From IMG/VR virus record IMGVR_UViG_3300034418_006582, positions 1 through 64,000 of that record: 64,000 bases of DNA; one strand, written 5' to 3'. Of this stretch, positions 4,198 to 29,560 are shown piece after piece (positions within the stretch are counted from its first letter, which is position 1; each line of letters starts with the position of its first letter). The position numbers and the translations under genes are program-made. Below the pieces are notes generated by a model. It was not told where the DNA came from. It saw nothing but the letters and a program-made list of their open reading frames with translations, and did not search any database. The stretch comes from a virus.

Positions 4198-4703
4198 TAT
4201 TCTTCTCCTAACTTATTCTTAACTTTAAAAAGCCCTGAGCTAAAACCTATGCCACCTTCTTCAGCGCATTGTTTTGCGTAGCTTTCTTTTCCACCATCAA
4301 ACCACTCTTTTGAATAATCAATGGTTTCGTATTTTGCTTTAGTGCCTTGCAATTGTCTTTTTTTACCAGACTCATACATAGCATGAGCAAAACTTTCACA
4401 ACCTATTTCTTTTAAATAATCATTTAATGAATATTTTTTTCCCTCAAATTGTGGCACTTCATGATCAGTGTATTCATATCTCATGATCTCCGATGCAGAA
4501 GCATATATTTTTGACGGATTTGGGACAAATTCATCACCAGCTTTAAATGATCTTTCAATAGCACCTTCAATGTGTCTTATATCAAAACCTTTTAATTCAT
4601 CAAAAGCACTAATTGCTTGTTCATCAGTCCAGTGAAAATTTGGCCATTTTAATTTCATAAAATTAACACAGTTTGCCCATTGATTTTTATTCATTGTTTT
4701 CAC
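4197..4703 (-). CDS. Hypothetical protein, possible helicase loader/inhibitor
   Basis: Follows the initiator; F.P.PS.I pattern. Confidence 0.4.
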   Translation of the reverse strand: MKTMNKNQWANCVNFMKLKWPNFHWTDEQAISAFDELKGFDIRHIEGAIERSFKAGDEFVPNPSKIYASASEIMRYEYTDHEVPQFEGKKYSLNDYLKEIGCESFAHAMYESGKKRQLQGTKAKYETIDYSKEWFDGGKESYAKQCAEEGGIGFSSGLFKVKNKLGEE

Positions 4704-5409
4704 TTTCTACCCATGCTTGTAATTCTGCTTTTGATTGTTGATTTACTAATTGTTTATCAATTTGTTTTTTATCTTTAGGTGAAACAACTTGATCTAACCA
4801 AAGCCAATTACCAACTAAAGCATCAGGAGTTGGTCTATCTTTCCAGCGAACAAAATAATTAAATCCTCGCCTGCGTATTTCATCAGGTGTCGCATTTAAG
4901 TCATTTAATTCTTTAGAAGCAACATTTAATTTACCTCTTACTTTTTTAGTTATTTCATCTTTACACTCTGAATAAGGTCTTCCTACACAAACTTCTACTA
5001 ATGCAGTAAAAAGTTCATTGTGTCTAGATTCTATTACTACATCTGTTTCGTTAGTTTCTTTATGTATTCTTTGTTTTCTTTTACGATCACGATCTATTTG
5101 TCTGCGATCAATTAAAGTACCATGATACTCAGCCCAGTCATGAATAATTAATTCGTTATCGTATTGATCTAGCCAACCTGCTTCAACTAATGCTTTTATA
5201 AATTCGTCATTATCGCCATCGTAATTCGCTGCCTTAGCAATTCTTTTCTGATATTTAGTTATATCACCACTGTCTGCATAGGATAAAGCCCACCACCATA
5301 AATAATGTAGATGACCTATTACTTGTGCAGGGTGTAGTTTGAGAATTTCTGCTAGTTCATCAACTTTAGGATGTTGTGATAATGATTCATCACTTTTGAT
5401 CCATGCCAT
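4687..5409 (-). CDS. Phage replication initiator-like protein
   Basis: MAWIK..HPK..GHLHYLWWWA..GWL..IHDWAEY..RKRKQR winged-helix initiator pattern. Confidence 0.75.
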   Translation of the reverse strand: MAWIKSDESLSQHPKVDELAEILKLHPAQVIGHLHYLWWWALSYADSGDITKYQKRIAKAANYDGDNDEFIKALVEAGWLDQYDNELIIHDWAEYHGTLIDRRQIDRDRKRKQRIHKETNETDVVIESRHNELFTALVEVCVGRPYSECKDEITKKVRGKLNVASKELNDLNATPDEIRRRGFNYFVRWKDRPTPDALVGNWLWLDQVVSPKDKKQIDKQLVNQQSKAELQAWVESENNE

Positions 5410-10154: not shown

Positions 10155-10394
10155 ATGGCAAAGCGTTTAACTGAACCTGATCTGTGGTCAAACTCAGATC
10201 AACCTTTAGGAGTGCAAGAAATTGCAGATCTATTAGGTTATAAAAAAACTACTGTAAGCTCATGGCGACAGAGAAGACAATTCCCTGTACCTGACACTGA
10301 AGTTGCAAACGGAACTATCGGTTTATGGAAAAGATCTACAGTAATAAATTGGGCTAATGCCACTGGCCGAAACAAAACAGGGGCAACAATATAA
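10155..10394 (+). CDS. AlpA/Xis-like HTH DNA-binding protein
   Basis: LGVQEIADLLGYKKTTVSSWRQR..FPVP..LWKRSTVINW. Confidence 0.85.
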   Translation: MAKRLTEPDLWSNSDQPLGVQEIADLLGYKKTTVSSWRQRRQFPVPDTEVANGTIGLWKRSTVINWANATGRNKTGATI

Positions 10395-10495
10395 AAATGT
10401 CAGACCAGTTTAGTAGACTGTTTAGTGACATGACCGAAGTATTCGGTGAATATGGTTGGAGAGAAATACCGACTAATAATATAGGAGAGAAAATA

Positions 10496-11269
10496 ATGAG
10501 CGAAGAAATAATTGTAGAGGCTGAGTCAACAGAAATTGTTGAATCACCTAACAATCAAATAACTACAAATATATTTGGAACTACAAATCCTGCTGACTTT
10601 GTTTCAAAATCACAGGAATATGCTAAAGCTCTAGTAGATGTAGTTGAAAACCAAAATTTATTTGCAGTAATACAAGGTAAAAAGTATGTAACATTTGAGG
10701 GGTGGCAATTCCTCGGATCTATGTTGCCTACTGCTATAACACCACAAACAGAGTGGACAACAGAATTAAGAGATGAAGCAACTGGCGAAACACTAGGATA
10801 TAAAACTCGTGTAGTAGCTAAAGATGTTAACGGAAACGATCGTGGCGCTGCTGAATCAGTATGTATGTATTCTGAAAGAAATTGGGCAGGCAAAGACGCT
10901 AACCACTTGATGTCAATGGCTCAAACTCGTGCAAGTTCTAAAGCACTTAGAATGGCTTTGTCATCAATTGTAAAGCTGGCTGGATATGAACCAACACCTA
11001 AAGAGGAAATGGATGGCATTACTGCTGAAAATTCATTTAGTAATACTGGATCAACTTCAGCACCTACTAACAATGGTGGTAAGGCGAGTGAAAAACAATT
11101 GAAGTTTGCTAAAGACATGATCCGAAAGAATGTTGATCATGAACTTGTGCAAAATGATTATTACAGACCAATATTAGAAAAAATTGCTACTGGCGATATT
11201 AGTGGCAAAGAAGTTTCTGCTGTTCTTGACTGGATAACAGGTAAAACTGATCAATTAATTACTTTCTAA
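10496..11269 (+). CDS. Putative single-strand annealing/recombination protein
   Basis: GKKYVTFEGWQFLG..SMAQTRASSKALR..EPTPKEEM and ASEKQ motifs; ATG at 10496 has a GGAGAG RBS. Confidence 0.6.
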   Translation: MSEEIIVEAESTEIVESPNNQITTNIFGTTNPADFVSKSQEYAKALVDVVENQNLFAVIQGKKYVTFEGWQFLGSMLPTAITPQTEWTTELRDEATGETLGYKTRVVAKDVNGNDRGAAESVCMYSERNWAGKDANHLMSMAQTRASSKALRMALSSIVKLAGYEPTPKEEMDGITAENSFSNTGSTSAPTNNGGKASEKQLKFAKDMIRKNVDHELVQNDYYRPILEKIATGDISGKEVSAVLDWITGKTDQLITF

Positions 11270-11348
11270 CAAATAGCAATACTGGATCTATAGAATCGGA
11301 AAACCCCTCTTTACGAGGGGCTTTCTTTATGTTGGACTTCTACCTTGT
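11266..11348. repeat. Right copy of perfect inverted repeat, containing a terminator
   Basis: Reverse complement of 1-83. Confidence 0.95.
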
Positions 11349-11512
11349 GAGAGAGTTGTAGAATTAACTGATCTTCATTATAAATGGGATTGAAAATATA
11401 TCATAATGATAAGTTAATTATTGTACTGCACGAATAGACTTTGGATTGAAAATGTGCTTTAATGATGAGTTTTGGTTGTGAAGATCGAAAAAGAATAATG
11501 ATCTAAAAGAGC

Positions 11513-11543
11513 AAAAAAAAAGAGGGCATTTCTGCCCCCTTTT
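11513..11543 (-). terminator. Cassette terminator
   Basis: A-tract followed by GAGGGCA-TTTC-TGCCCCC hairpin. Confidence 0.75.
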
Positions 11544-11562
11544 ATCTTTCAGTTTTTTTTAT

Positions 11563-12078
11563 TTATGCGTTAACAACCTCCTTTAAATTATTATTTAATG
11601 CTTCACTAATATTTATAGATATATAAAAAGCTGTGTGAAAATAATCCGTCATTGAGTCTGATTTGTCAAACCATAGATCACCAACGCCAGCATGGAATGG
11701 AGCAGTCTTTATTATTTCCTCCACTTTGTCCAGAAATTTGTTTTGTTCTGGTGTGAATAAAATATAGATTCTTTCAGCAATATCTATATGATGCTCAAAT
11801 TTGTCTGGATTTTGATCCATCCATCTCACCAACTCTGGATAAATTTCTGGTTTATATTCTCTAATTCTGTCAACAGCCAAACTGTATCTAGGCTTAAAGC
11901 TCTCTCTATACAATACCTCCATATCAGAGAATATATTTGTCCAATCTAGATCAGACTTTTTAACATCAACGCATAAGCGCATATGGTCTTGAATACGAAC
12001 ACCAAATTTAGAATTAGGAAATTCTTTCTTTAGTGCCTCTCGGATCGCTTTGGATTCCTCTTTTGTAATATATGCCAT
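11563..12078 (-). CDS. Early protein resembling the LPD29 domain
   Basis: SKAIREALKKEFPNSKFGVR..DSMTDYFH; own promoter, leader and terminator. Confidence 0.6.
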   Translation of the reverse strand: MAYITKEESKAIREALKKEFPNSKFGVRIQDHMRLCVDVKKSDLDWTNIFSDMEVLYRESFKPRYSLAVDRIREYKPEIYPELVRWMDQNPDKFEHHIDIAERIYILFTPEQNKFLDKVEEIIKTAPFHAGVGDLWFDKSDSMTDYFHTAFYISINISEALNNNLKEVVNA

Positions 12079-12342
12079 TTTAAGCTCCTTTTATTTTCTA
12101 TTACTTCTAATAATATTAACTGCCTATCAGATATATGCAAGTATATTTTTAAAAAATATTTAAAGCTGGCCGTTGATCTTCTAGCAGTCATGGATCTAAT
12201 TCTGCGCTGCATAAAGTCGGATTGAAAACGAGCTTTAATGATAAGTCCATAATATGATCACCGATAGAAATGGGATTGAAAATCAGTATTAATGATAAGT
12301 TTTTACTAGTAAGGCCAGAAACGGCTAACGATCAAAAAATGC

Positions 12343-12374
12343 AAAAAAAAAGAGGGACATTTGCCCCTCTTTTT
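12343..12374 (-). terminator. Cassette terminator
   Basis: A-tract followed by GAGGG..CCCTC hairpin. Confidence 0.75.
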
Positions 12375-12722
12375 CCGTAATCGAGATGAGGTTATGCGAT
12401 CATTGTAGGATCGTATTTCAAACCTAATTGTTTTCTACACTCATCGTCTAAGATCAAGATTGCATTTTCGCAACTATCACAAGTGATCACATTATTACGC
12501 TCTAAGTCAGTTGTTGTAAGAACTGCAAGCGTATCACAATTTTGACAGTCTATTTCAAAAAACATTAATCTACCCTTTCTGCTTTAACAATTTTGTAGCC
12601 CTCTTTATAAAAAAGATTTTCTACTGAATACATATCCAATTCCTCAATAGCGTTTTCGATACACTCAGCTTTATTGTTACCCTCGCCATAGATCTCTAAT
12701 TGAACTGTAAATTTATATTCTT

Positions 12723-13052
12723 TCATTTTTTCACCTCAAAACGATCAAGACCATGAATAAAAGCGCCATTGTTTCCCTCAGGATCGCCCATTAATGTGAT
12801 AGTAATAGTTTTTCCTTTACTATCCTTTAATTCGATCACAGGAAAAGCAACATCATCAGACCAGTCTGTTTCCTCGTTGAGTTTCCATTGAGTCTGTACA
12901 AAATAAGTATCTTTAATTCTTAAGCCCTTAAGTTTTTCAAGATCCTTATAGTCATTTAAGTTATGATCAAGATCTGATCTTTTCACAACTTCTCGATAAT
13001 CAGTTGATCCAGTATCACTTTCGATATGATCAACATAATTTTCAGGTTTCAT
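12723..13052 (-). CDS. Hypothetical early protein
   Basis: Conserved leader; MGDPEGNNGAFI motif. Confidence 0.75.
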   Translation of the reverse strand: MKPENYVDHIESDTGSTDYREVVKRSDLDHNLNDYKDLEKLKGLRIKDTYFVQTQWKLNEETDWSDDVAFPVIELKDSKGKTITITLMGDPEGNNGAFIHGLDRFEVKK

Positions 13053-13080
13053 AATTTACCTCTTTCTGTATTACTTCTCA

Positions 13081-13119
13081 TAATTATACTTGCATAGTTG
13101 TGTTATGCAAGTATAATTA
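13081..13119. promoter_or_regulatory. Palindromic bidirectional promoter with operator
   Basis: 16-bp perfect arms with a 7-bp centre; TTGCAT-16-TATAAT on both strands. Confidence 0.85.
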
Positions 13120-13151
13120 AAATTAGTAATAGAGAAAAGAAAGAGGACAAA

Positions 13152-13805
13152 ATGGAAAGAGTAGATCTTTTTAGAGAACCTATAAAAAAATGGGATATGG
13201 ATAAAGACACAAAAGCATTTTTAGTAGAAAATGATTTTGGTATCACTGACACTGGTGGTGGTTGTATCCATTTAACATACAAAGACTGGATCATAAACAA
13301 ATATGAATCAGTTGATTATGATGACATGTACGCACTTAACGAGATCACTTTAAACGATCTATGTATGTGGGGACAAATTTGGAACGATACTGGCGAGGAC
13401 ACATCGTTTTTGAACACTTTAGAAAGTGGAAAACAATTTGTTGATCAATACAAGTTAAGTGGAAGTCAATTTGCAAATAAAACAGATAAGCCGATCAATA
13501 GTTGGATCGAGGTATGGGAAAAAAGTGGTGGCGATCTAGATACTTACGAACAAAACTATTTTTTATGCCAGTGGGAAAACAGTTATTTGGTTTCTAGCGA
13601 AAAAGACTTAATCAAAAACTTTCCTCATGATGTACATGTAAAAGAGTTAGGTTGGTCAGGCTACAACAGAACTAACGGTAAATCTGTTGCAATAGATACT
13701 TTTTGGGACATGATCATGTTTATAAAAAAAGATAATCCTTTTGAGTGGACATTTTTTAGCGACAACATGAATATTACGCTCATGAGAGAAAGTGAAACAG
13801 AATAA
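13152..13805 (+). CDS. Hypothetical early protein
   Basis: ATG at 13152 follows the AGTAATAG..AGAGG leader; TGGGC motif. Confidence 0.75.
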   Translation: MERVDLFREPIKKWDMDKDTKAFLVENDFGITDTGGGCIHLTYKDWIINKYESVDYDDMYALNEITLNDLCMWGQIWNDTGEDTSFLNTLESGKQFVDQYKLSGSQFANKTDKPINSWIEVWEKSGGDLDTYEQNYFLCQWENSYLVSSEKDLIKNFPHDVHVKELGWSGYNRTNGKSVAIDTFWDMIMFIKKDNPFEWTFFSDNMNITLMRESETE

Positions 13806-14363
13806 TGGTTGTTAAAGACAACGAGTGGTTAGATCATTGCACATGCGATGATCTAACTGCGAGAAATTGTATATGCGACTTAAACGAGGGGGAATAATGG
13901 CGAATCGACATAGTTGGCAAGATATGGCTGACTTAACACACAAAACACAAGTAGAGGAATTTAATTTTTGTTTATGCGAGGAACAAGAAGTATTCCCTTA
14001 CGATGATTGCCCAAAAGAAAGTGTAGGGAAGTAATGGAACAAATAATAAATCTATTACAAAAAGTATTAGACATATCTAAACAACTAGACAGTAATGATG
14101 AATTGTCATTAACAACTGACTTAGAAGAAGATATTGAAATATTTATAAAGGATAATTAAAGTGAAAAGAAAATTAATTAAATTAGTTATCAAAATATTGA
14201 TAGAAAGATCAGATCTAGATCGTGATGATCTACACGAGATCTCAAAATATGCCGATAACATTATTGTAAGTAAATTTATAAGAGGTAAAAATTGATTTAT
14301 ATAATTCAAATTATATTGGAAAAACTTAAGGGCAAGAAGTAAAGCTGACACCATAAGTTTTGA

Positions 14364-14392
14364 GAGAGGGGCTTACAAGCCCCTCTTTTTTT
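14364..14392 (+). terminator. Terminator of the rightward cassette
   Basis: GAGGGGCTT-AC-AAGCCCCTC followed by T-tract. Confidence 0.8.
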
Positions 14393-14548
14393 ATTTGAGA
14401 TTGAAAATTTACATTAATGATAAGTCTTTTATTTGATCATGGTAAAAATCGAGATTGAAAATGAGTATTAATAATGAGTTTTTCATAGGATCATCGAAAC
14501 ACAAAAAAAAATGGGGATCCTAAGATCCCCATTTGTATTGTTTGATTG

Positions 14549-15115
14549 CTAAATTTTTAAACGATCTTTTAACTGATGATCGGTATAGATCTCACCAGTC
14601 TCAAAATTCACACGATCATAATTGTATAAGTGATTAAACAAATCGACTTTTGATTTGTCTAACTCTTTAACCATATGATCATAGATCCATTGAAAATTGA
14701 TCAATAGAAAATTATGAAAATCAAGATTGCCAGTTGTTGATCTCTCATGCTTGATCCATTTAGATCTGTAACTCTCTAAATGGCAATTTGAGTATGATAC
14801 ATCGAGGTTAAGACATTTACTACAACCTAACAACAATGCAATAGTCATGACATTTGTATAAGTGTCTTTATTAACTCTTATATCGTAGATCGTATCGAAT
14901 TGATCTCTATAGTCATTTTTTTCACCATTATTTTTACCGATACAATAATGAGTATAAGAGGGATAGATCTTGCCATAAATGTTATTAACTTTTATTGGTA
15001 AATAATCTTGTCTCTTATAATCATCGAATCTTAGATCAACGATGATTGGCTTAAAGTTTTCTAAAACATTTAAGATCATCGCATATTGATCTTTAGTTAA
15101 ATTATGATCGATCAT
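14549..15115 (-). CDS. Hypothetical early protein (GATC-dense)
   Basis: 188-aa ORF coupled to 15112-15456. Confidence 0.7.
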   Translation of the reverse strand: MIDHNLTKDQYAMILNVLENFKPIIVDLRFDDYKRQDYLPIKVNNIYGKIYPSYTHYCIGKNNGEKNDYRDQFDTIYDIRVNKDTYTNVMTIALLLGCSKCLNLDVSYSNCHLESYRSKWIKHERSTTGNLDFHNFLLINFQWIYDHMVKELDKSKVDLFNHLYNYDRVNFETGEIYTDHQLKDRLKI

Positions 15116-15456
15116 GATAAATTGATCTTATCTAAGATCTCATTGATCTTGTTTGCTTTAACTGGATCTTTAAAGACATCGTAATTGATCGCTTTAGAAA
15201 AACCAAAGGGATCATTTTGCGATAGATCCTCTTTTAAGATCTCAATATCCGTATCACTTAAAGTTAGATCCTCTATGATCGTTTTATTGATTAATTCAAA
15301 ACTAAACCAATTATCGATCTTTTGATCCTCTAACTCTTTTAGTAATAATTCTCTAGCAATAGTTTTACCTTGTTTTGTTGCAACAGATACAACCTTTTCG
15401 GTCTTATCCATTAACTTAACGAGATAGTCATATTGCCATAAGTTTTTATTGGGCAT
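15112..15456 (-). CDS. Hypothetical early protein (GATC-dense)
   Basis: Conserved leader and RBS. Confidence 0.7.
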   Translation of the reverse strand: MPNKNLWQYDYLVKLMDKTEKVVSVATKQGKTIARELLLKELEDQKIDNWFSFELINKTIIEDLTLSDTDIEILKEDLSQNDPFGFSKAINYDVFKDPVKANKINEILDKINLS

Positions 15457-15756
15457 AATTTCCTCTTTCTCTTAATTACTAATTTAAGCATATCACACAT
15501 CGGCAATTTATAAAAGTCAATAAATATAAACTTTTGGTTATGGTGATCGGTTAAGGTCTAAATTTAAAATCGCTTAAAACGGCTTAAAACGGCTTGTTTA
15601 AAAAATCGAGATTGAAAATCAGCCTTAATGATAAGTTTTTTAATGGATACTCAAAAAATGTGTTTTAAAATGAATCTCTTAAAATGGATCTAAAGAGGAT
15701 ATAAAGAAAGAGGATCCAGTAAAACTGGATCCTCTTATTTGATTAGTAACCGATGT

Positions 15757-16008
15757 TTAAAACGGATCTGGTATTCTCAATTCATTTTGGAAGTATTCTA
15801 AATTTGCTTGAATTGTACTAGCTCTTTTAAAAGTCAATTCATTAAAATTAGAATTAAAATTTTCAAAGACTTCGATCATATGCCGTTCTAATACTGATAA
15901 TTCATAGATCATTTTGAATTTAGTATCTAGATCATAATTTCTAAATTTGATCGCTGATACTCTAACCTTTAGAATTTTTGCTATCGCTATAAAATGTTTT
16001 TTAGTCAT
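15757..16008 (-). CDS. Hypothetical early protein
   Basis: MTKKHFIAIAKIL..F...N..F...F pattern; GAGG RBS. Confidence 0.7.
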   Translation of the reverse strand: MTKKHFIAIAKILKVRVSAIKFRNYDLDTKFKMIYELSVLERHMIEVFENFNSNFNELTFKRASTIQANLEYFQNELRIPDPF

Positions 16009-16010
16009 TT

Positions 16011-16250
16011 TTAACCTCTTTCTATTTTTCTATATGTATCTAAAGAATTGTAATTTTCTTTAATTAATTTGCTAACCTTAACAACTCTATAAACTCTTTT
16101 ACATGTGATTGGATCACTTATAAACATTTTTACAGAATTGCACTCACCTATTGAGTTATGATCAGCACAACCGTCAGCTTTCTTTTCTAAAATGAAAAAA
16201 AACTGATCACCGTATTTTTTTCCTATTTGATCTAAAGTCATAAACTTCAT
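16011..16250 (-). CDS. Hypothetical early protein
   Basis: Conserved leader and RBS. Confidence 0.7.
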   Translation of the reverse strand: MKFMTLDQIGKKYGDQFFFILEKKADGCADHNSIGECNSVKMFISDPITCKRVYRVVKVSKLIKENYNSLDTYRKIERG

Positions 16251-16593
16251 TGATCACCTCTTTCTTTTCGATTACTGATCTAAGCATATCACAACTATGC
16301 AATTAATTCACTTAAAAAATAATTATTTATTTGAGTAAAAGAGGATCTAAAGAGGATCTAGAAAAAACGCGATTGAAAATCTGTCATAATGATAAGTTTT
16401 TTAATTGATAAGCGAAATAATCGAGATTGAAAATGGCCTTTAATGATAAGTTTTTTATTTGAGGCTCGAAATTAAGATATTTTAGATTTAGCTGAAGTTG
16501 ATCCAGTATTGCCAAATTTAATATTGCGTTGAGAGATCCGTGGCATAAAAAAAGTGGGGCATAAAGCCCCACTCAATCGATATTACTTTATTT

Positions 16594-16941
16594 TTAACTG
16601 TGACAAGTTACGACAAAAGCACATAATCTTTCTTTTATCGCTAAGTCCTCAGGCTTAGTACCTCGCAAGAGCTTATCCAACTCAGTCAAATCACCGTACT
16701 TTCCTCTGAAGTCGATATAAATTTGCTCATCTGCCTCATCGCCTAGAGCTTTAAACAGACTTTCCAAACTGTCTATTGCTTTCAACTCAACAGATTTTCT
16801 TTCAGGTATTTCTATACTGTCATATTGTCCACCGTACTCAGTTTGTTTTTCGTACCAGTCAAGAATATTGCATGGCAAAAAGCCATTTTTAACACTCCAA
16901 ACATGGTCGACAGTAGAAACACCAATGCCGTTTGTCCACAT
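16594..16941 (-). CDS. Hypothetical early protein
   Basis: Single-gene cassette with promoter, leader and terminator. Confidence 0.75.
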   Translation of the reverse strand: MWTNGIGVSTVDHVWSVKNGFLPCNILDWYEKQTEYGGQYDSIEIPERKSVELKAIDSLESLFKALGDEADEQIYIDFRGKYGDLTELDKLLRGTKPEDLAIKERLCAFVVTCHS

Positions 16942-17131
16942 TTTATTTTTCCTTTTTTTAGTCGATTACTAATTTTAATTATAATTGCCTTTTACTTATA
17001 TGCAATAACATTTTTGCAATTAAAGATCCGTGGATAAAATGCAGAGTTAGATCTAATTTTGCCTTGGATCTTTAACTGCATAAAAAAAAGAGGTTGGACA
17101 AACCAACCTCTTTTAATTTTGGCAGAGCTGC

Positions 17132-17710
17132 TTAAGCTATTTCAATAGCCTCGCCCTCTAAAGTCCAAACAGTTTCGCCAGTATCTAGGTCGCCGAAATT
17201 TTCAAAATACCACTCAGTCCAAAACCAGTTATCAAGCCCACCACCAAAGTTCTTTTCGCCAGTTTTAGTATCAATAAGCCTGTGCCACTCTTTTGTATTC
17301 ATTTCTATGCCACCGAACTCATCAGCCCTTTCAATTAAAGAGATGATGAAGTTTCTATTCTCAACTGTTTCCTCATTTAGCAGAGTTAGATCTAAATTAG
17401 GCAAGTGCATATCATGGCAATTACAGTTATCATACTTTTCGCAATCTCTCACTTCACACTCTCTTGAGCAAATCACACTGATATCGCCAATTAAGTAACC
17501 CTCATTTATGCCTTTACCACAATCATCGACTTCGCAATGTCTAGGGTAAACTGTTAAGGTTTCAACTTCTTTTAAACAAGTATCGCACCAAGTTTTGCCA
17601 TTTCCAACTGGTTCGCCTACCTCGGATCTATATAAGCCAACCCAGTATTGCTTGCTTAATGTTCCGAAACTTTTGCAAGTTCCACATATCTCAACGGTTT
17701 TTTCGTCCAT
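17132..17710 (-). CDS. Cys-rich zinc-finger early protein
   Basis: Multiple CxxC motifs. Confidence 0.75.
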   Translation of the reverse strand: MDEKTVEICGTCKSFGTLSKQYWVGLYRSEVGEPVGNGKTWCDTCLKEVETLTVYPRHCEVDDCGKGINEGYLIGDISVICSRECEVRDCEKYDNCNCHDMHLPNLDLTLLNEETVENRNFIISLIERADEFGGIEMNTKEWHRLIDTKTGEKNFGGGLDNWFWTEWYFENFGDLDTGETVWTLEGEAIEIA

Positions 17711-17958
17711 TATTTATTCCTCTCTATACAAGTTTCACACTCAAACTCAGGACCACTACACCATGAGCAGTAACACTCATCGAATAAGCCCTCAGCATGT
17801 TGGCAACAAGTTGCACTATCAAAAGCATGAGTTTCCAATTCAACTGGATAAGTCTTAAACATATATCTGTCTAATACTTTTCCAGTAAACTCCCAAACAC
17901 CTAAAAGCAAAAATGCAATCACGGTTATTGAGAATATAAGAAAAAATGCGTTTTCCAT
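17710..17958 (-). CDS. Small membrane-anchored Cys-rich protein
   Basis: N-terminal TM segment; conserved leader. Confidence 0.7.
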   Translation of the reverse strand: MENAFFLIFSITVIAFLLLGVWEFTGKVLDRYMFKTYPVELETHAFDSATCCQHAEGLFDECYCSWCSGPEFECETCIERNK

Positions 17959-18013
17959 TTTTTATCCTTTCAATCGATTACTAATTTAATTTTGATCACT
18001 TTTTGCTATTTTG

Positions 18014-18391
18014 TCAAGAATAGAAATAGAACTCATAATTATCTCGAAGTTCTTTGTAGTCTTTCTTTTCCTGACAATCATGATCTCTGTCTGCAAAATA
18101 CAAAGTTGGAGTTCTGCAAAAGTCACAGACATGATGATGAATTGCAAAAGAAAAATCGTCACGAGTTGTTATTGTAAAAGCCAACCAACCCAAGTCAGTA
18201 TAAACTTTTATATCTACACCTGGGAAACTATGATTTTTTAAATAGTGTTCTGCACTAAAAACAAGTTGTTCCAAATGTTCTGCACTTTTCAACTTTGTAT
18301 CATCAACAGAATATTTTTCAATATAAGTTTCTTGTGCAAATGAGTTATCGCCTTTAACTCCGATTTTAAATTTATATTTTCTTTGTTTCAT
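18014..18391 (-). CDS. Hypothetical early protein
   Basis: Conserved leader; CDFC..HDC. Confidence 0.7.
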   Translation of the reverse strand: MKQRKYKFKIGVKGDNSFAQETYIEKYSVDDTKLKSAEHLEQLVFSAEHYLKNHSFPGVDIKVYTDLGWLAFTITTRDDFSFAIHHHVCDFCRTPTLYFADRDHDCQEKKDYKELRDNYEFYFYS

Positions 18392-18753
18392 TTTTACCTC
18401 TTTATCGATTACTACTTATTAGAATAACACTATTTTGCAATTAAAGATCCGTGTTATCTATAAATATCTGTGCAGTCCAGTCAAGGTCCAAAAATTCTAA
18501 ACGCTTAAAACGGCTTAAAAGTGCCTGTTTTTTTCAAGTTTTTACAAAATTAGCAATCCTGGATCAAATTCAGCAAATTTGCGATTGAGAATTAGTCTTA
18601 ATGATTAGTCATTTATTTGATAATTAAAACAATTGAGATTGAAAATGTATGTTAATGATGAGTTTTTTATTTGATACTCAGAATTGAGCCATGGATCTTT
18701 TAGTGCAAAAAAAAAGCGAGGTCGAAACCTCGCTCTTTTTTATTTAATGCGAC

Positions 18754-19164
18754 CTATAACATATCAGCAATTTGGTTTTCATATTCAGAATAAAAAGTTT
18801 CAAATTCCTCATTGGTCAATTTATTTTCATGACTTAACGACATGCAAGACTTTTGTATTAAATCCGTAATTGAATTTCGGTTTGCACTTAAGTTAGGATT
18901 GTAACAATCAAGCCAAAACAAAAAATGGTCTGTCCTCATTTTGTAAGTTTCGACTATTTCATTTTTGGCTAAAGAATACTTTTGGCATAAAGTCCAAAAG
19001 TCTGGCTCAGGTTGAGTTAAACAATCAAACAACCATAAATCATAACTATGAGTTTCTGAATTATGTGCCTCAATATCTCTACTGTCAAACATAAGAATAT
19101 AGTTTGACATGTCTAAATTAGGCACAACAAACAACTGTTTCATATTGTCCCAAATATTTTCCAT
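18754..19164 (-). CDS. Hypothetical early protein
   Basis: AGGGGG RBS; followed by terminator at 18707-18742. Confidence 0.7.
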   Translation of the reverse strand: MENIWDNMKQLFVVPNLDMSNYILMFDSRDIEAHNSETHSYDLWLFDCLTQPEPDFWTLCQKYSLAKNEIVETYKMRTDHFLFWLDCYNPNLSANRNSITDLIQKSCMSLSHENKLTNEEFETFYSEYENQIADML

Positions 19165-19174
19165 TATTCCCCCT

Positions 19175-19456
19175 TTAACTTTTGTAATAGTTATTTATTG
19201 CGTTTTGCATTACGCTATCTTTTACAAAAAATTCATCAACTTCTACATTGTCAACAAACTTTTGTACATTGTAATTAAATTCCCAGTATTTTTTTTCCTC
19301 AAATGAAGTATGGTATTCATCATATTGGATTAACCATATGGTCTTACTACTACCTGGGATTATTTGTAAATCACGAAAACATAATTCCTCAAATAAAATC
19401 CAGCAATCGTTTTCAAAATTAACTGGATTTTTTTTAGTGTATTTTGGCTTAGCCAT
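19175..19456 (-). CDS. Hypothetical early protein
   Basis: Conserved leader; perfect operator upstream. Confidence 0.7.
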   Translation of the reverse strand: MAKPKYTKKNPVNFENDCWILFEELCFRDLQIIPGSSKTIWLIQYDEYHTSFEEKKYWEFNYNVQKFVDNVEVDEFFVKDSVMQNAINNYYKS

Positions 19457-19852
19457 TTTTTACCTCTTTTTAATCGATTACTAATAACCATTATAGTTGC
19501 ATATTTGTCTTATGCAATTCAAAAATCTCTGAGATCCGTGTAAAAAAAAAATTGATCACAAATAGCAAAACTGGATCCGTGTTTTGTAAAACTGGCCAAA
19601 TTGCTGCAAAGCTGACGAAACAAAACGAGATTGAAAATGTCTTATAATGATTAGTCCTTTAAGTGAAACTAGAGAGAATTGAGATTGAAAATGTGTATTA
19701 ATAATAAGTTTTAAATTTGAAGATCGAAACTTAGATTTGTTTAAATACTGGTAAAAAAGAGACAAAAAAAAAGAGGGCTTTAAACCCTCTTTTTTAATTT
19801 TATTTGATTAATTAGCGCTTTAATTTCTCAAATATGATTTCTACAATATATT

Positions 19853-20110
19853 TCATAATCTCCTCTCTTTTAATCGTTTTACTATTTCCTCGTATCTTTC
19901 ATGGTTTAAACCAACTTCATGATCTTCTAATTCTTTAGCACCAACTTCATCATTCCATTCATAAAGGGCATCTAATAGATTTTCATAAATATTTGGTCTT
20001 CTATATCTTGTGATAATTTTGGTTAACATGTCGAAGATCATCCCCAACATGAAACCAAAACCAAACATCAAAATTAAACCGTTAACAGATAGCATGTTTA
20101 TATCTCCCAA
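19853..20110 (-). CDS. Small membrane protein
   Basis: TM segment GLILMFGFGFMLGMIF. Confidence 0.65.
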   Translation of the reverse strand: MGDINMLSVNGLILMFGFGFMLGMIFDMLTKIITRYRRPNIYENLLDALYEWNDEVGAKELEDHEVGLNHERYEEIVKRLKERRL

Positions 20111-20442
20111 TTTTGTCTAATATCTTCTTTTTCTTTACCTTTTGCACTATCCCAAGAATTAAAGATCTCCAGTTCTTTCTCACTTAATAACTCAAGGGCA
20201 AACGATAAAGATTCTTTTATTGTTTCTATTTCTTTAGAAAATTTATTTAATTGATTTCCTAAATACTTAGCGCCATTATAAAATCCTGCGTCATACTCAT
20301 TTGTTGAATCACAATCCATCACATACTCGAGTACTTCATCAAAATTTCTTAAACCCATTCCACTTAAATCGGTAAAATTTTCACCTTCAAAATCTTCTCT
20401 AATTTCTTGAATTAGTTCTTCGATCTTCTCGTTTAATGTCAT
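20098..20442 (-). CDS. Hypothetical acidic protein
   Basis: GGAGG RBS; coupled ORF. Confidence 0.7.
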   Translation of the reverse strand: MTLNEKIEELIQEIREDFEGENFTDLSGMGLRNFDEVLEYVMDCDSTNEYDAGFYNGAKYLGNQLNKFSKEIETIKESLSFALELLSEKELEIFNSWDSAKGKEKEDIRQNWEI

Positions 20443-20595
20443 TCTTCCTCCCCTATAACTATAGTATCAGTTTCCGATTCACAATTATGGCAGTACTCCT
20501 CCCCAGCACCGTCTATAATTGTGTCATCGTTTAAATTTTGCCATATATCCGTATAAACATCTTTCGAGCCACACCCACTGCAAACATACGGCATT

Positions 20596-20862
20596 TTATT
20601 GTCTATCTTTCTTTAATTTGATTTCATTAATAATACTTTTGCTACCGTTCCACGCTCCAGTTGTTATTAATTCAACTTCAAACCCCAAACCCTCTAACCA
20701 ACTATTGATTTCATTTTCAATAGCTGTCGCAATATTAAAGGGATGATCTTCGACTTCATAATCTTCATTGTGTTGAAGATCATGAACTTCTAAATCTACA
20801 TTTTCATCCAGTTTTAAAACTAGCTTATATTCAAAATGTAGGTTATCTAATTTGATTAGCAT
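20596..20862 (-). CDS. Hypothetical early protein
   Basis: Conserved leader AGTAATCGAAAAAGAGG. Confidence 0.7.
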   Translation of the reverse strand: MLIKLDNLHFEYKLVLKLDENVDLEVHDLQHNEDYEVEDHPFNIATAIENEINSWLEGLGFEVELITTGAWNGSKSIINEIKLKKDRQ

Positions 20863-21059
20863 ATTTACCTCTTTTTCGATTACTTATTTAATTATTGATC
20901 AACTTCTGATTTATGTCAACAACCTTTTTAAATTATTTTCCAAACGGTCTAAACGGTCTAATAGTTCTTTATGTTGTAACCTTTTAAAATCAATATAAAG
21001 ATAAATTAAACCAACTAAAGAAGCTAATATCAATAAACTTAAAAGCAATTCTAAAAGAT

Positions 21060-21251
21060 TCATTGATGGAGACCACTTCGACAAAATGCCACTTTATAAT
21101 TAAACTTGCCCTCTATTGAGATCTCCAATTCATAAGAACATATTGGGCAATATTCAGCAAAGAGATTTATATCTTTTCTAGTTCTATTTTTAACTTGCTT
21201 ATTTCCTACTCTTTTTCGGTCAATAAGTCTTTTAATGTTTCTCATCATCAT
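21060..21251 (-). CDS. Small zinc-ribbon protein
   Basis: CPIC..CRSGLH. Confidence 0.45.
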   Translation of the reverse strand: MMMRNIKRLIDRKRVGNKQVKNRTRKDINLFAEYCPICSYELEISIEGKFNYKVAFCRSGLHQ

Positions 21252-21475
21252 TAGTTACTAGTGACAAGTTATTAAAAATTTGACCATTTTTTAAAAAAAA
21301 GAATTAGATCATGTGAATTAAAAAAGTAAACAAAAAAAACGAGATTGAAAATGAGTCTTAATGATGAGTTTTTTATAGGATCATAGGAAATGCTGTCAGA
21401 TTATTAAGAGCTAAAAAAAGACAATAAAAAAAGTGGGGTATGAAACCCCACTTTAAAAATAAATTAAATTATTTT

Positions 21476-21850
21476 TTAAATTAACTTTGATTGATCATCT
21501 AAGAAACAACTATTTAAAAAACCGATCATTAATCTTTGATCCGTCTTAGTAGTTGCAACATTAACAAACGGCATAAACCAATCTTGATATTGAGCCTGAA
21601 TATCTTTAATCAAACCATTTTCATCAGTTGACCAGATCCAGCGATAAGCACCACCACCCCACGAGATCAAAATGCCCTCGATATAACCAGCCTTTACATC
21701 TTGTCTAGTTAATCTAGTGTGATCAAGTTTTTCCAAAGCGTACCATTTACCGTTTTCTTTTATTTCTTTTGCTAATTCTTTCAAATAACTTTTGTGGTAT
21801 TTGGTTCCCTCAACATGTAATTTTTCTAGTGTTTCAGCCATTATTTCCAC
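21476..21850 (-). CDS. Hypothetical early protein
   Basis: LISWGGG..YQDWF motif. Confidence 0.75.
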   Translation of the reverse strand: MEIMAETLEKLHVEGTKYHKSYLKELAKEIKENGKWYALEKLDHTRLTRQDVKAGYIEGILISWGGGAYRWIWSTDENGLIKDIQAQYQDWFMPFVNVATTKTDQRLMIGFLNSCFLDDQSKLI

Positions 21851-22191
21851 CCCCTAAATGTGCTATAACTTTGCCAAAATTCAGTAGTTAGATCGATTAA
21901 TATTTTTCCATTTTCATCAAAAATATTTGTTTCTAACATTGAATTTAAAACTTCAGAAAAATTATTTTTTGACAATAATTCTTTAGCAAGTTTCTTGTTT
22001 TTATTTGCTTGAATATGTGAAAACATTAACGCAACTATTTCATGTGTTGCGCCATATTTTTCCATAAGATCCAAAGTCATATTTATATAGTGCTTAAAAG
22101 TTATATCCTTGTTTTTAAATTTACTTTCAATAACATAAAGCTGGTACAGTCTGACTTGATCGCCAGTCAAACCAATATTTAATTCAGTCAT
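21841..22191 (-). CDS. Hypothetical early protein
   Basis: AAGGA RBS; coupled ORF. Confidence 0.7.
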   Translation of the reverse strand: MTELNIGLTGDQVRLYQLYVIESKFKNKDITFKHYINMTLDLMEKYGATHEIVALMFSHIQANKNKKLAKELLSKNNFSEVLNSMLETNIFDENGKILIDLTTEFWQSYSTFRGWK

Positions 22192-22192
22192 T

Positions 22193-22336
22193 TTAATTAT
22201 TTCCTTTCAAATAATATTTCTTGTTTAATCTGTCTATTAATCTTTCAAAAAGATAATTAGACAGAAAGCCTAAAGCAAAACAACCCAAAACAATAATTAA
22301 ATATTCAGTTGGGTTTAAAGTGATTGTATCAACCAT
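22193..22336 (-). CDS. Small membrane protein (47 aa, not in ORF track)
   Basis: MVDTITLNPTEYLIIVLGCFALGFLSNYLFERL.. directly after the conserved leader. Confidence 0.65.
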   Translation of the reverse strand: MVDTITLNPTEYLIIVLGCFALGFLSNYLFERLIDRLNKKYYLKGNN

Positions 22337-22634
22337 TTTTTCCTCTTTCTTTTTCGATTACTAATTTTAATATTAATCGCATATCAGAGTTATGCAAATC
22401 AAAAAAATGTTTTTTTATGTATGATTGCTGATCGGTGGAACCTTAGCCCCACCGATTATTTATTTAATGTTTATTAATAGGGGGTAGGGGTACTTTCAAA
22501 ATCGCGATTGAATATTTGTGTGCTGTGAATAAGCACTGCGCAAATTTTTTTCAAATTTTTCAAAGCCTATCTCTGATAGGCAGGTTTGTTAAAAACCTGT
22601 TGTCGTTACATTGAGTCTTTGCTATTATTGATCT

Positions 22635-23451: not shown

Positions 23452-23970
23452 ATGAGTGATGAAATAGAAATTATTGACTCGGTTGATGAAATTGATCGCA
23501 GCGGGAATACAGATATAGCTGTTGCGGATCAAGAGGATTTCGATATAGAGATTGTTGGTAGGCCAAGCAAATTAACCGATGACACAGTAAGGAAATTATC
23601 CTCTGGCTTGAAAATGGGTTTAAGTCAGAAAAAAGCAGCAGATTTTGCTGGAATATCAGAAACTACTTTTTATAGGTGGCAAAGAGAGTTCCAGAAGATC
23701 GATAAGGCTTGTTTAGGTAACCCAGATCGTATAAATAACGCTGATGATCTCAATTTATGGGAGTTTTGGCAGTCCTTAAAAAAGGCAAAGATCGAGGGCG
23801 AGCTTTCCCATATAGCTGTAATCACAGAGGCAGCGAATAATGGAGTATGGCAGGCTAGTGCTTGGTTCTTAGAGCGATCTAATCCACAAGATTGGGGTAA
23901 AGACAAGCGAGAACTTGAAGCTCATTCAGAGGGTAAGACAATAGAATTTAATATTAAATACAGTTCATAA
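23452..23970 (+). CDS. Terminase small subunit-like HTH protein
   Basis: GRPSKLT..AADFAGISETTFYRW..WQASAWFLER..WG. Confidence 0.75.
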   Translation: MSDEIEIIDSVDEIDRSGNTDIAVADQEDFDIEIVGRPSKLTDDTVRKLSSGLKMGLSQKKAADFAGISETTFYRWQREFQKIDKACLGNPDRINNADDLNLWEFWQSLKKAKIEGELSHIAVITEAANNGVWQASAWFLERSNPQDWGKDKRELEAHSEGKTIEFNIKYSS

Positions 23971-24153: not shown

Positions 24154-24699
24154 ATGACGGTAATACCTTTTCCTGATAAAAAATACAACATTATTTACGC
24201 AGATCCTCCCTGGTCATTTAAGAACTTTAGTAAAAAAGGCGAGGGTAGAAATCCTAATCAGCATTATGCAACACAAGATCTGAACTGGATCAAGTCTTTA
24301 CCTGTAAATGACATAGCTGATAAAGATTGTGTTTTATTTTTATGGGTAGTGAACCACTCTTTACCACAGGCATTTGAAGTTATTGAAAGCTGGGGGTTTA
24401 CTTACAAGACAGTAGCTTTCAACTGGGTTAAAAAAAATATGAAATCTGAGGGATTTTTCACTGGTTTAGGATATTGGACAAGAGGAAATCCAGAAATATG
24501 TTTATTAGCAACAAAAGGTAAACCAAGTAGAGTTTCTAAAGCTGTGAAAGAATTAGTAATAGAGCCTAGATCTAAACACAGCAAAAAACCAGACAGAATT
24601 AGAGATGATATTATTGACTTGTGTGGTGATCTCCCTAGAATTGAATTGTTTGCAAGGAATACGACTAAAGGATGGGATGTATGGGGGAATCAGATTTAA
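24154..24699 (+). CDS. MT-A70 family adenine methyltransferase
   Basis: IIYADPPW, LFLW, HSKKP and RIELFAR..GWDVWGN motifs. Confidence 0.93.
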   Translation: MTVIPFPDKKYNIIYADPPWSFKNFSKKGEGRNPNQHYATQDLNWIKSLPVNDIADKDCVLFLWVVNHSLPQAFEVIESWGFTYKTVAFNWVKKNMKSEGFFTGLGYWTRGNPEICLLATKGKPSRVSKAVKELVIEPRSKHSKKPDRIRDDIIDLCGDLPRIELFARNTTKGWDVWGNQI

Positions 24700-25229
24700 T
24701 ACCTTTTCCAGAGAAAAAATATAATATTATTTATGCCGATCCACCGTGGTCTTATGATTCAGGTTTTCTTAAAAGAAATTGGGACGGTAAGTACAATCAG
24801 ATGAAACCACAGGAGATCTATGATCTACCAGTGCAAGATATAGCAGACGATAATTGTATTTTGTTTATGTGGATCACTTATCCTAAATTACTTATAGGTT
24901 TACAAGCTATGGAAAGTTGGGGATTCAAGTATCGCAGTGCAGCATTTACTTGGGTTAAAAGGAATAAGAAAGCAGACACTTGGTTTTGGGGTATGGGACA
25001 TTGGACTAGAGCTAATGCTGAGGTCTGCTTTCTAGGTGTAAAAGGAAAACCTCAAAGAGAAAGTGCTAGTGTTCACTCAATCGTTGATGAAAGAATACAA
25101 GAACACTCAAAAAAACCAGATGTAGTTAGAAATAAAATTGTAGAGCTTTGTGGAGATCTACCTCGTATAGAATTATTTGCAAGACAAAAAGTAGAGGGTT
25201 GGGATAGTTGGGGAAATGAAATTATTTAA
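24672..25229 (+). CDS. MT-A70 family adenine methyltransferase
   Basis: IIYADPPW, HSKKP and RIELFAR motifs; tandem paralog. Confidence 0.93.
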   Translation: MGCMGESDLIPFPEKKYNIIYADPPWSYDSGFLKRNWDGKYNQMKPQEIYDLPVQDIADDNCILFMWITYPKLLIGLQAMESWGFKYRSAAFTWVKRNKKADTWFWGMGHWTRANAEVCFLGVKGKPQRESASVHSIVDERIQEHSKKPDVVRNKIVELCGDLPRIELFARQKVEGWDSWGNEII

Positions 25230-25905
25230 TGGTGATTGTTTAGAAGTTATGAAAGAGTTACCAGATAACTCTATTGATTTAATTGTTACAAGTCCACCTT
25301 ATGAAGATATTTCTGGTGCAGGATATCAAGCTAGTAACAAAGATATTCTATTTTTAAAGCTGTACTCAGAATTTATAGATCAAGTCTTTGAACAATACGC
25401 CAGGATCTTAAAACCTAACGGCCAGTTGTTTTTTAATATTAAAAGCAAAACAGCGCAAAAAAAATTAAGGACACCTCATTGGTTAGAATTTACAAATGCT
25501 TTTCAACAGCTTGATTTCAAAAGTTACATTATTTGGAAATATGCTGGTAGCTTTGATAGTTCCAAAGCTAGATTCCATTTAGATTACGAAATTATATATC
25601 ACCTTGCAAAAGGAGATGATATTTATTTAAACAGTGATTGTGGTATAGATGATCCATTAACTTCTGTATGGTATGTACCACACAATATACCAAAAGCAGA
25701 AAGAATACACCCTACACAAATGCCATTAGCTCTGGCAGACAGAATATTAAAAATTGCCTCAAAACCAAACGATGTTGTTTTAGATAATTTTATGGGAAGT
25801 GGAACTACTGGTGTCGCTTGTATAAAAAACAATGTAGATTTTATTGGAATTGAATTAAACAACGATAATTACAAATTAGCAAAGGAGAGAATTGAAGCTA
25901 TTTAA
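25216..25905 (+). CDS. DNA methyltransferase (beta class)
   Basis: TSPPY, HPTQMP and VLDNFMGSGTTG motifs. Confidence 0.93.
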   Translation: MKLFNGDCLEVMKELPDNSIDLIVTSPPYEDISGAGYQASNKDILFLKLYSEFIDQVFEQYARILKPNGQLFFNIKSKTAQKKLRTPHWLEFTNAFQQLDFKSYIIWKYAGSFDSSKARFHLDYEIIYHLAKGDDIYLNSDCGIDDPLTSVWYVPHNIPKAERIHPTQMPLALADRILKIASKPNDVVLDNFMGSGTTGVACIKNNVDFIGIELNNDNYKLAKERIEAI

Positions 25906-26815: not shown

Positions 26816-27455
26816 CGCTTTAGAAATATTAAAAGAAATGCAAGATGACTATGTAGATCATGTTTTTACTAGTCCACCATACAATATTGGCAGAAGTAGA
26901 TCTATACAATCAAAAGCAAAAGGTAAATATGAACATTTTGAAGATAGTAATGAAAACTATTTTGATTGGTGTACAAAAATCATTGACCAGCTTTTAAGAG
27001 TTTCTAGTGGGTATGTTTTTTGGAATATACAAGCAAACTCACAAAATAAAAAAGATGTTTTTAAACTAATAGGTCATTATGCAGATATTTTAGAACAAAA
27101 CTTTATTTGGTATAAGCCTAATGCGACACCTAGTTCAAAACAATATTATGTTTCAAATGTAGTTGAATATATTTTATGTTTTTCTAAATCTAAGGTAAAA
27201 GGAAATAAACATTTTTTAAGAAATCATGTTGAAATAAATAAAGGAACTAAGTATATAAAAAACTTAAATGCACAAATGCCTCTTTCTTTAGCTGATCATT
27301 TTATTAAAAATTACACACAAAAGGGCGAAATTGTACTAGATCCTTTCTTAGGTAGTGGAACAACTGGAGTAGTTTGCATGAATAGACAAAGAAGTTTTAT
27401 TGGTATAGAATTAGTACCAGAATATTTAGAAATAGCAAAAGAAAGAATCAAATGA
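26793..27455 (+). CDS. DNA methyltransferase (beta class)
   Basis: TSPPY and VLDPFLGSGTTG motifs. Confidence 0.92.
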   Translation: MITLFQGDALEILKEMQDDYVDHVFTSPPYNIGRSRSIQSKAKGKYEHFEDSNENYFDWCTKIIDQLLRVSSGYVFWNIQANSQNKKDVFKLIGHYADILEQNFIWYKPNATPSSKQYYVSNVVEYILCFSKSKVKGNKHFLRNHVEINKGTKYIKNLNAQMPLSLADHFIKNYTQKGEIVLDPFLGSGTTGVVCMNRQRSFIGIELVPEYLEIAKERIK

Positions 27456-29453: not shown

Positions 29454-29560
29454 CGGAATTCCGCGGAATTCCGTGTGACACCACCTCGGAATTCCGTGGC
29501 TAGAGTAGAGTAGAGTAGAGAAGAGTAGACTAGAGTAGAGAAGAGTATATAATATATATT
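29454..29560. repeat. Iteron-like cluster, probable replication origin
   Basis: 3x CGGAATTCCG, 9 tandem WAGAS pentamers, then an AT-only tract. Confidence 0.6.

Follow-up and report, generated by a model that had tools for sequence, protein, structure and literature searches.

A co-oriented intergenic repeat at the borders of early gene cassettes in uncultivated aquatic siphoviruses

Cluster A mycobacteriophage L5 encodes a gp71-type repressor predicted to bind, as a monomer, more than twenty 13-mer stoperators, whose function is lost when they are inverted (PMC9283540). BldC recognizes DNA direct repeats through asymmetric head-to-tail oligomerization (PMC5859096), and D29 Gp36, a MerR-family phage protein with GC-rich direct repeats as its binding sites, represses phage genes (PMC12266134). 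In the promoter-early stem-loop (PeSL) cassettes of T4-type phages, a terminator and an early promoter flank variable ORFans (PMC2839356, PMC4122927). Here, we analyzed a repeat that shares features with each of these systems. It lies in the first 64,000 nt (hereafter the window) of the 78,156-bp IMG/VR virus record IMGVR_UViG_3300034418_006582, where 14 copies of GATTGAAAAT-N6-TAATGATAAGT occupy intergenic gaps in an array of small early gene cassettes. In this phage and its relatives, almost all gaps between such cassettes hold the motif.

We tentatively interpret the repeats as operator-like or iteron-like sites for a clade-specific phage DNA-binding protein, which would mark or insulate the cassette boundaries, and rate the chance of this being correct at slightly below even. 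We infer protein binding, the identity of the binder, and the regulatory outcome from sequence patterns. Strongly conserved in a widespread clade of uncultivated aquatic siphoviruses, the repeat is a cis-signal that had not been described before. It marks the exact borders of hypervariable early cassettes, where phage host-takeover and anti-defence genes accumulate.

Sequence and conservation of the repeat

All 14 copies are on the + strand and carry 0-2 mismatches in the 21 specified bases of the search pattern. They start at 11388, 11444, 12220, 12274, 14399, 14453, 15610, 16371, 16425, 18583, 18637, 19629, 19683, and 21343, and form eight loci, numbered here from left to right. Six of these are pairs with internal spacings of 56, 54, 54, 54, 54, and 54 bp, and two are singles (15610 and 21343). 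Shuffled sequence contained a mean of 0.02 matches, and none of 100 shuffles reached 14. The full 78,156-bp genome held the same 14 forward copies and no reverse copy. A position weight matrix scan of both strands, extended over the remainder of the phage as the preliminary description of this DNA had proposed, found no further site above 12 bits. Isolated arms were limited to a degenerate copy at 22506 and a left arm with one mismatch at 31872. The 14 co-oriented copies in pairs and singles had already been recognized in that description, and only their coordinates needed correction, as the true starts lie 2 nt further right.

Conservation was assessed in an alignment of 103 distinct sites from ~25 contigs. 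Positions 1-6, 8-9, 18-20, and 22 were invariant, while their neighbors and the flanks varied. The conserved pattern comprises G at -1 followed by G1 A2 T3 T4 G5 A6, A8 A9, and T10 in its 5' part; G13, a pyrimidine at 14, T16/T17, and A18 A19 T20 G21 A22 in the middle; and A25 G26 T27, a pyrimidine at 28, G37 A38, and A46 A47 in its 3' part. Including G-1, G37 A38, and A46 A47, the conserved unit in the window is ~48 bp long and exceeds 27 bp. Conserved arms around a variable 6-bp core had been noted. The arms are indeed conserved, but the core is not free: although the 14 copies in the window carry 14 different 6-mers, position 14 was a pyrimidine in 100% of the 103 sites, position 13 was G in 71%, and position 16 was T in 83%. 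Across the wider set of relatives, the conserved core is GATTGAAAAT-N6-TAAT(G).

The same pattern of constraint is visible within a single locus. In an alignment of eight orthologous sequences of locus 2, the arms were invariant while core and flanks drifted. Coding DNA around the sites is 68-84% identical to that of the nearest large relative, contig G001. First and second members of pairs have their own signatures (AGTC versus AGTT), indicating that whole pairs spread as units. Judged from these alignments, purifying selection acts on the long asymmetric pattern.

Two earlier proposals concerned the identity of the repeat. One was that the copies are XerCD/dif-type recombination sites, with which we also weighed an integron-like cassette type, and the other that they are Fur/Zur half-sites, serving as boxes or decoys. 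Both draw on real resemblances: the 10-6-11 layout is similar to that of arm-core-arm sites, and the right arm holds TAATGATAA, a 9-mer of the Fur-box consensus. The arms, however, lack dyad symmetry: whatever register or core size is chosen, no more than 5 of 8-10 positions are complementary. A recombination site is further contradicted by the 14 different cores in 14 copies. The mean best match to the dif consensus was 14.0 of 28, compared to a background of 13.3 +/- 1.25 in random windows of the same genome, and no integrase or resolvase family was found in the phage open reading frames (ORFs) scanned. Against the 19-bp palindromic Fur-box consensus GATAATGATAATCATTATC, units matched at 10-13 positions (mean 11.8; background 10.0 +/- 1.2), scores that random windows also attain, with 11 or more in 32% of them and 12 or more in 11%. 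In the units, a single half of the box matches, and no palindrome is formed. Moreover, the Fur-like half is not conserved. Relatives keeping GATTGAAAAT-N6-TAAT have TAATGAAATAA, TAATGCACAAA, or TAAT alone as their right half, with GATAAG replaced by GAAATAA or GCACAAA in sequences that otherwise retain the motif. We regard both proposals as largely refuted and as the least probable of the alternatives weighed here.

Comparisons with other known signals were also negative. RNA structure predictions gave z values of -1.7 to +1.4 over both strands, and all Rfam hits were far below gathering scores. The resemblance of ATTGAAA to the ends of CRISPR repeats raised the idea of a CRISPR-repeat or RNA decoy, which was rejected given the variable center, the semi-conserved 'spacer', and the absence of a fold or Rfam hit. 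Consensus sequences for IHF, CtrA, and sigma54/28/32/ECF showed no fit when compared by eye, and a literature search with the motif string returned unrelated hits only.

No isolated phage genome matched the 11-22 kb region at near identity, and the portal protein is at most 36% identical to that of any isolate. Relatives were instead found among uncultivated sequences, with ~30 related contigs recovered from IMG/VR and metagenome scans of freshwater, estuarine, and marine samples, TARA included. G001, at 68-84% identity in syntenic DNA, carries 13 copies, all forward, as 6 pairs and 1 single. Among 24 close metagenome stretches, sites were co-oriented within every contig, with 0 copies on the opposite strand. 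Their pair spacing was mostly 54 bp, with 62-63 bp in one sub-lineage and 56-59 bp at the locus 1 orthologue, where the pairs of relatives lie 57-59 bp apart. Both G001 and L090 have a pair where the window has the single unit of locus 4. In distant relatives (TerS 59-67% identical, and the 79-aa protein discussed below 57-72%), only cGA-GATTGA(A/G)AAT-N6-TAAT(G) is kept. In these phages, the unit stands alone or is repeated head-to-tail 2-4 times in tight arrays. The period is 22-23 bp in the arrays of L094, L098, and L101, while L096 has 3 units at 38 bp.

Conservation of the arms and of the 54-bp spacing in relatives had both been named as tests of the repeat. The arms are conserved, whereas the spacing is not (62-63, 56-59, 38, and 22-23 bp). 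As these values have no fixed helical phase, the notion that 54 bp represents five helical turns was discarded. The constancy of orientation beside rightward transcription was upheld, except that two rightward cassettes are present (10155-11269 and 13098-14354) where one had been counted; the repeat flips beside neither. Among distant relatives, L043 has two degenerate copies on the other strand, and one of its + copies precedes a + gene. Constant orientation may reflect a polar function, as in stoperators, or it may equally result from spread by tandem duplication and recombination between direct repeats. In the more distant L099 and L100/L063, a different repeat was sought at the same place and nothing convincing was found, such that no co-variation of protein and site could be shown.

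Placement within the early cassette array

Genes between 11.5 and 22.3 kb form a leftward chain of small self-contained cassettes, while those from 22.9 kb onward run rightward. Read on the - strand, a cassette border consists of a gene stop and an intrinsic terminator, then 30-101 nt, then motif copy 2 and copy 1. Some 45-150 nt past the motif follow a sigma70-type promoter (TTGCAT-N16/17-TATAAT), a leader shared among cassettes (TTAGTAATCGA...AAAGAGG), and an ATG. All eight motif loci are non-coding (8/8), though only 25% of 11270-22400 is non-coding, a result with a probability of about 2e-5 under random locus placement. A terminator lies just to the right of all 8 loci, at 30-101 nt; terminator-like sites number 22, versus 6.0 expected. 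Because the distances to the promoter (~45-150 nt) and to the terminator both vary, the repeat is a free-standing site that is part of neither signal.

All loci lie on the + strand of the window. Locus 1 (11388..11491; motifs 11388 and 11444, 56 bp apart) is located between convergent terminators at 11304-11320 (+) and 11518-11543 (-). Locus 2 (12220..12321; motifs 12220 and 12274, 54 bp apart) separates the terminator 12345-12376 (-) from the sigma70-type promoter and leader of gene 11563-12078. Locus 3 (14399..14500; motifs 14399 and 14453, 54 bp) is bordered by the terminator of a + cassette (14362-14389) and by a bidirectional terminator (14509-14534). As loci 1 and 3 both sit between convergent terminators, no leftward gene follows there. 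The single unit of locus 4 (15610..15657) has a terminator (15708-15736) 72 nt to its right. Locus 5 (16371..16472; motifs 16371 and 16425, 54 bp) is separated by 101 nt from the - terminator 16552-16574 on its right and is itself upstream of the gene 16011-16250 promoter. Terminators follow locus 6 (18583..18684; motifs 18583 and 18637, 54 bp) after 52 nt (18715-18734), locus 7 (19629..19730; motifs 19629 and 19683, 54 bp) after 58 nt (19767-19795, bidirectional), and the single unit of locus 8 (21343..21390) after 61 nt (21430-21454, - strand). Finally, the half-site previously noticed near 22504 was confirmed as a degenerate 15th copy (22506..22535, + strand). It reads GATTGAATAT-TTGTGT, a left arm matching at 9 of 10 positions and a core-like hexamer, with the right arm broken behind, and is located upstream of the first leftward early promoter.

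The array contains further repeated elements. Near-identical early promoters with the leader were found at 12109-12140, 13063-13137, 16952-17016, 22350-22397, and at other cassette starts; at 13063-13137, two sigma70-type early promoters stand back to back and point away from each other. A second intergenic repeat family occurs at 15564-15595 and 18499-18520. It consists of AAGCCGTTTTAAGCG with a ~10-bp period, then TTTAGACCTTAAC, and at these two loci is located between the motif and the next promoter. Cassette gene 11563-12078 encodes a large polyvalent protein-associated domain 29 (LPD29), detected at 27.7 bits where the cut-off is 27, which fits a counter-defence or host-takeover role of the variable cassettes.

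RNA contigs from 3-4 metatranscriptome studies covered the cassettes as separate pieces, with shared stops at 11577/8, 12088/9, 15456-63, 16256, and 11287, in agreement with the promoter-terminator map. Their borders hint, if only weakly, that the cassettes begin at their sigma70 promoters rather than at the motif. The motif-bearing gaps were uncovered in the metatranscriptome contigs of 4 runs; as these are assembled contigs, from which short RNAs are lost, this is no sign of silence. One X18 contig ends at 11389, where locus 1 starts, but as contigs do not reveal RNA ends it was given no weight.

These contig starts bear, as far as such a hint goes, on whether the repeat could itself be a non-canonical promoter, read by the RNA polymerase of the host together with a factor from the phage. 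Such a promoter would give short RNAs ending at the bidirectional terminator if active on the + strand, and would represent a second class of cassette promoter if active on the - strand. Tandem promoters are common in phage early regions. The best - strand reading, TTyCgA-N17-TATCAT, has A-11 in 84% and T-7 in 100% of sites, but its -35-like hexamer matches at only 2-3/6 positions. The GA(t)(a)(a)T block at 37-42 would be the '-10' on the + strand and is followed by a terminator 30-101 nt on at 8/8 loci, but its T-7 is found in no more than 57% of sites. The most strongly conserved block (GATTGAAAAT, 100%) belongs to no promoter element. A sigma70 consensus scan did not call the motif units as promoters, and their layout fits sigma70 on neither strand. 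In addition, units 22 bp apart cannot be separate promoters, and the loci at 11388 and 14399 have no leftward gene to serve. Altogether, we consider a promoter improbable. A Bacteroidota-type promoter (TTG...TAnnTTTG) was rejected, given that the genes have strong AGGAG-type ribosome sites and that the -7-like part is unconserved in relatives.

Cassette gene content differs greatly among relatives while the border modules persist, which raises a second alternative, in which the repeat has no protein-specific function. Terminator-spacer-promoter modules would then be kept as homology for shuffling, or would have spread selfishly. PeSL modules mediate such shuffling in T4-type phages (PMC2839356, PMC4122927), and the AGTC and AGTT signatures of pair members, with whole pairs spreading as units, are in keeping with this. 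Yet homology of this kind would not hold 16 positions invariant beside variable ones in lineages ~70% identical. Nor were the ends of long homology blocks enriched at the motif, with 0% within 30 bp compared to 8% for random positions. That test used blocks of at least 400 bp from 20 related contigs and is blunt, since the blocks run through the conserved modules. We hold this explanation to be about as doubtful as a promoter.

Candidate binding proteins

Several properties of the repeat together form the signature of a sequence-specific protein site: a long asymmetric pattern in which invariant positions stand beside variable ones, head-to-tail arrangement, non-coding location, and independence of the distance to neighboring signals. 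The units of the 22-23 bp arrays, noted for L094, L096, L098, and L101, are too close for independent promoters and are typical of protein-binding direct repeats. The site would be double-stranded DNA bound asymmetrically, by monomers or by head-to-tail oligomers. Its functional unit is probably the ~20-22 bp GG-GATTGAAAAT-N6-TAAT, which in the lineage of the window would have been lengthened to ~48 bp and usually duplicated in tandem. Each gap that separates the terminator of a leftward cassette from its neighbor's promoter holds 1-4 sites, and protein bound to them would create a nucleoprotein boundary. The likely effect would be to insulate or down-regulate cassettes, either by blocking read-through or antisense RNA polymerase or through early shut-off. 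Of the earlier suggestions, a polar stoperator-like protein site survives in modified form as the best class of explanation.

The best candidate for the binder, chosen by fold class and gene neighborhood, is a 79-aa winged-helix protein of the MerR/Xis/BldC type (10155..10394, + strand). Its gene is the first of the rightward cassette whose terminator precedes locus 1. The protein matches the excisionase-type Pfam family HTH_17 (E 3.7e-5) and Terminase_5 (23.6 bits), and its structural model (pLDDT 79) contains a helix-turn-helix, a 2-strand wing, and a C-terminal helix. Among known folds, it comes closest to RacA, the N-domains of CarH/MerR, the DNA-binding domain of lambda gpNu1, BldC, and the Xis of mycobacteriophage Pukovnik, all of them weak matches. 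It is conserved across the clade, with 46-76% identity in relatives. Its cassette leads up to the first array in the window as well as in L094, L096, L097, L098, and L101. The partner gene in this cassette (10397-11269) encodes a 290-aa protein with more than 80 metagenomic homologues, up to 90% identical, and with no Pfam family or named relative. Sequence searches of the PDB with the 79-aa, 290-aa, and replication initiation proteins returned nothing significant.

A number of observations speak against this interpretation. Foldseek E values for the 79-aa model are weak (0.03-0.3), and its link to the repeat extends to fold class and gene neighborhood only. In G001, L080, L090, and L095, an inverted 11-kb segment places the gene ~11 kb from the arrays. 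A 46%-identical homologue is encoded by L100 plus L063 (one contig), where the motif is absent. Conserved blocks 13-16 bp apart with a 22-bp period are unlike an inverted-repeat dimer site, and a simple repressor would not usually have its sites 45-150 bp upstream of promoters. The constant orientation could, again, have arisen through duplication and recombination rather than function.

The main rival to this interpretation concerns a second protein, the replication initiation protein (Rep; 4687..5409, - strand), assigned to phrog_9474 in PHROG (E 8.6e-39). Here the repeats would be Rep iterons. Tight arrays would represent the origin, while the role of the scattered pairs and singles would be titration or 'handcuffing' of Rep, or a coupling between replication and early transcription. 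Iterons classically are direct repeats in head-to-tail order (R6K, RK2, P1, F), an arrangement matched by the 22-23 bp period of the distant relatives. No other repeat cluster or iterons were found in or beside the rep gene. GATC is very dense around the L094 arrays and across 12-16 kb of the window, as in Dam-regulated origins. Several features are, however, at odds with an origin. The sites are scattered over 10 kb at 8 or more loci, with rep 5-6 kb away, and we know of no origin with sites so distributed. DnaA boxes (TTWTNCACA) occur 6 times in 64 kb versus 11.7 expected, with none clustered at the loci, and no distinct AT-rich unwinding element was seen. The lineage of the window has pairs (54-56 bp) and singles only, and no array. 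We therefore regard iterons as unlikely, even as the foremost of the alternatives to sites for a clade-specific boundary protein.

The boundary interpretation also has a stricter form, which we consider more doubtful still than iterons. In this polar system, the winged-helix protein or Rep would coat the head-to-tail sites behind every early-cassette terminator and impose a one-way block on a translocating machine, whether RNA polymerase, a replication fork, or an end-entering nuclease. If true, this would be a stoperator-like or Ter-like barrier network in a phage without a recognizable lysogeny module. Such a barrier would protect or time a hypervariable, probably counter-defence, early gene array.

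TerS (23452-23970; phrog_4102, E 2e-30) is a third phage protein with a domain that could suit it as a candidate binder. In a corresponding alternative, TerS or an ejection-control protein would read the repeats as polar signals, whether for DNA packaging, for ejection, or for the boundaries of a terminal repeat. The array fills 12 kb ending just upstream of terS, at least 12 of 40 relatives' contigs begin within ~100 bp of this gene, and several contigs end at the motif. The absence of opposite-strand copies from all 24 close metagenome stretches would also be expected of a polar signal, and the 79-aa protein resembles terminase DNA-binding domains (gpNu1, RppC, Pfam Terminase_5). However, assemblies ordinarily break at repeats and where variable regions begin or end. 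Eight or more loci over 10 kb fit no pac or cos system known to us. A packaging or ejection signal is consequently very improbable. The starts of related contigs near terS may mark either a physical genome end or assembly breaks at the edge of the hypervariable region.

The remaining genes mark this uncultivated aquatic phage as a siphovirus, with TerL, portal, prohead protease, major capsid protein, tape measure, and tail fibres, together with SSB, a ParB-like protein, and the replication initiator at 4687-5409. Among its genes, no RNA polymerase, DNA polymerase, integrase, or repressor was recognized. The early region has one block of methyltransferase genes to its left (656-2877) and another to its right (24154-29062). 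These blocks contain at least 10 DNA methyltransferase genes (six N6_N4_Mtase, two MT-A70, a C-5 cytosine methylase, and others). Across the genome, GATC occurs 609 times versus 246 expected, a 2.5-fold excess that peaks at 22-26 per kb in 14-16 kb, both inside and between genes; in L094, extreme GATC clusters are interspersed through the first motif array. The GATC excess and the number of methyltransferases suggest methylation-dependent control.

An 11.2-kb segment carrying replication and methylase genes is flanked by a perfect 83-bp inverted repeat (1-83 and 11266-11348) that contains a terminator, one arm being the very start of the contig. The segment has the window orientation in L094, L096, L097, L098, and L101, while G001, L080, L090, and, by inference, L095 have it inverted. 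The flanking inverted repeat is also present in L080, and RNA contigs cross the 11265/11266 junction. The segment is either truly invertible (or repeatedly inverted) or partly a product of assembly ambiguity. Elsewhere, the non-coding stretch 29258-29547 holds three tandem-repeat arrays, an 11-bp unit x3.3, TTCCGCGGAA x2.5, and TAGAG x9.4 (or a 20-bp unit x2.3), and may represent an origin or another kind of control region.

Relation to known systems

The repeat belongs to no named family. With 21 or more specified bases, it can serve as a sharp marker for finding the clade and delimiting cassettes in metagenomes. If a protein binds, it would provide a handle on the insulation, timing, or shut-off of early cassette arrays, and would add to the small set of asymmetric multi-site regulators (stoperators and BldC/Gp36-type direct-repeat binders).

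With stoperators, the repeats share asymmetry, high copy number, short intergenic gaps, and co-orientation. Stoperators are, however, 13-14 bp long and genome-wide, follow local transcription in both arms, and serve the immunity repressor of temperate phages. The present unit is 22-48 bp, arranged in tandem arrays, and confined to the early cassette array, and it keeps one orientation along the leftward array with no flip beside the two rightward cassettes. No immunity repressor, integrase, or lysogeny module was recognized in the phage ORFs scanned.

The sites of BldC, D29 Gp36, and lambda Xis are similar in being head-to-tail direct repeats with variable copies per locus, and a small winged-helix protein is encoded in each case. 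The D29 Gp36 repeats are GC-rich, while those described here are AT-rich. BldC-type repeats are also short, in contrast to a 22-bp unit with two conserved blocks 13-16 bp apart, for which binding is here a prediction. Iterons (R6K, RK2, P1 oriR/incA, lambda ori) are alike in geometry, with direct repeats of ~20 bp, a 22-23 bp period, extra outlying copies, and a Rep-type initiator. Unlike iterons, the present repeats occupy 8 or more intergenic gaps over 10 kb, are not next to rep, and lack a DnaA-box cluster or an evident unwinding element. The likeness to dif/XerCD sites and Fur boxes is superficial, consisting of the 10-6-11 layout and the Fur-box 9-mer, with dyad symmetry absent, variable cores, and similarity at background.

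PeSLs resemble the modules that surround the repeat. Both are repeated composites of a terminator and a sigma70 promoter in hyperplastic regions of small, variable, mostly ORFan early genes. PeSLs consist of a promoter and a stem-loop only, whereas in this siphovirus a third conserved and oriented element is positioned between terminator and promoter.

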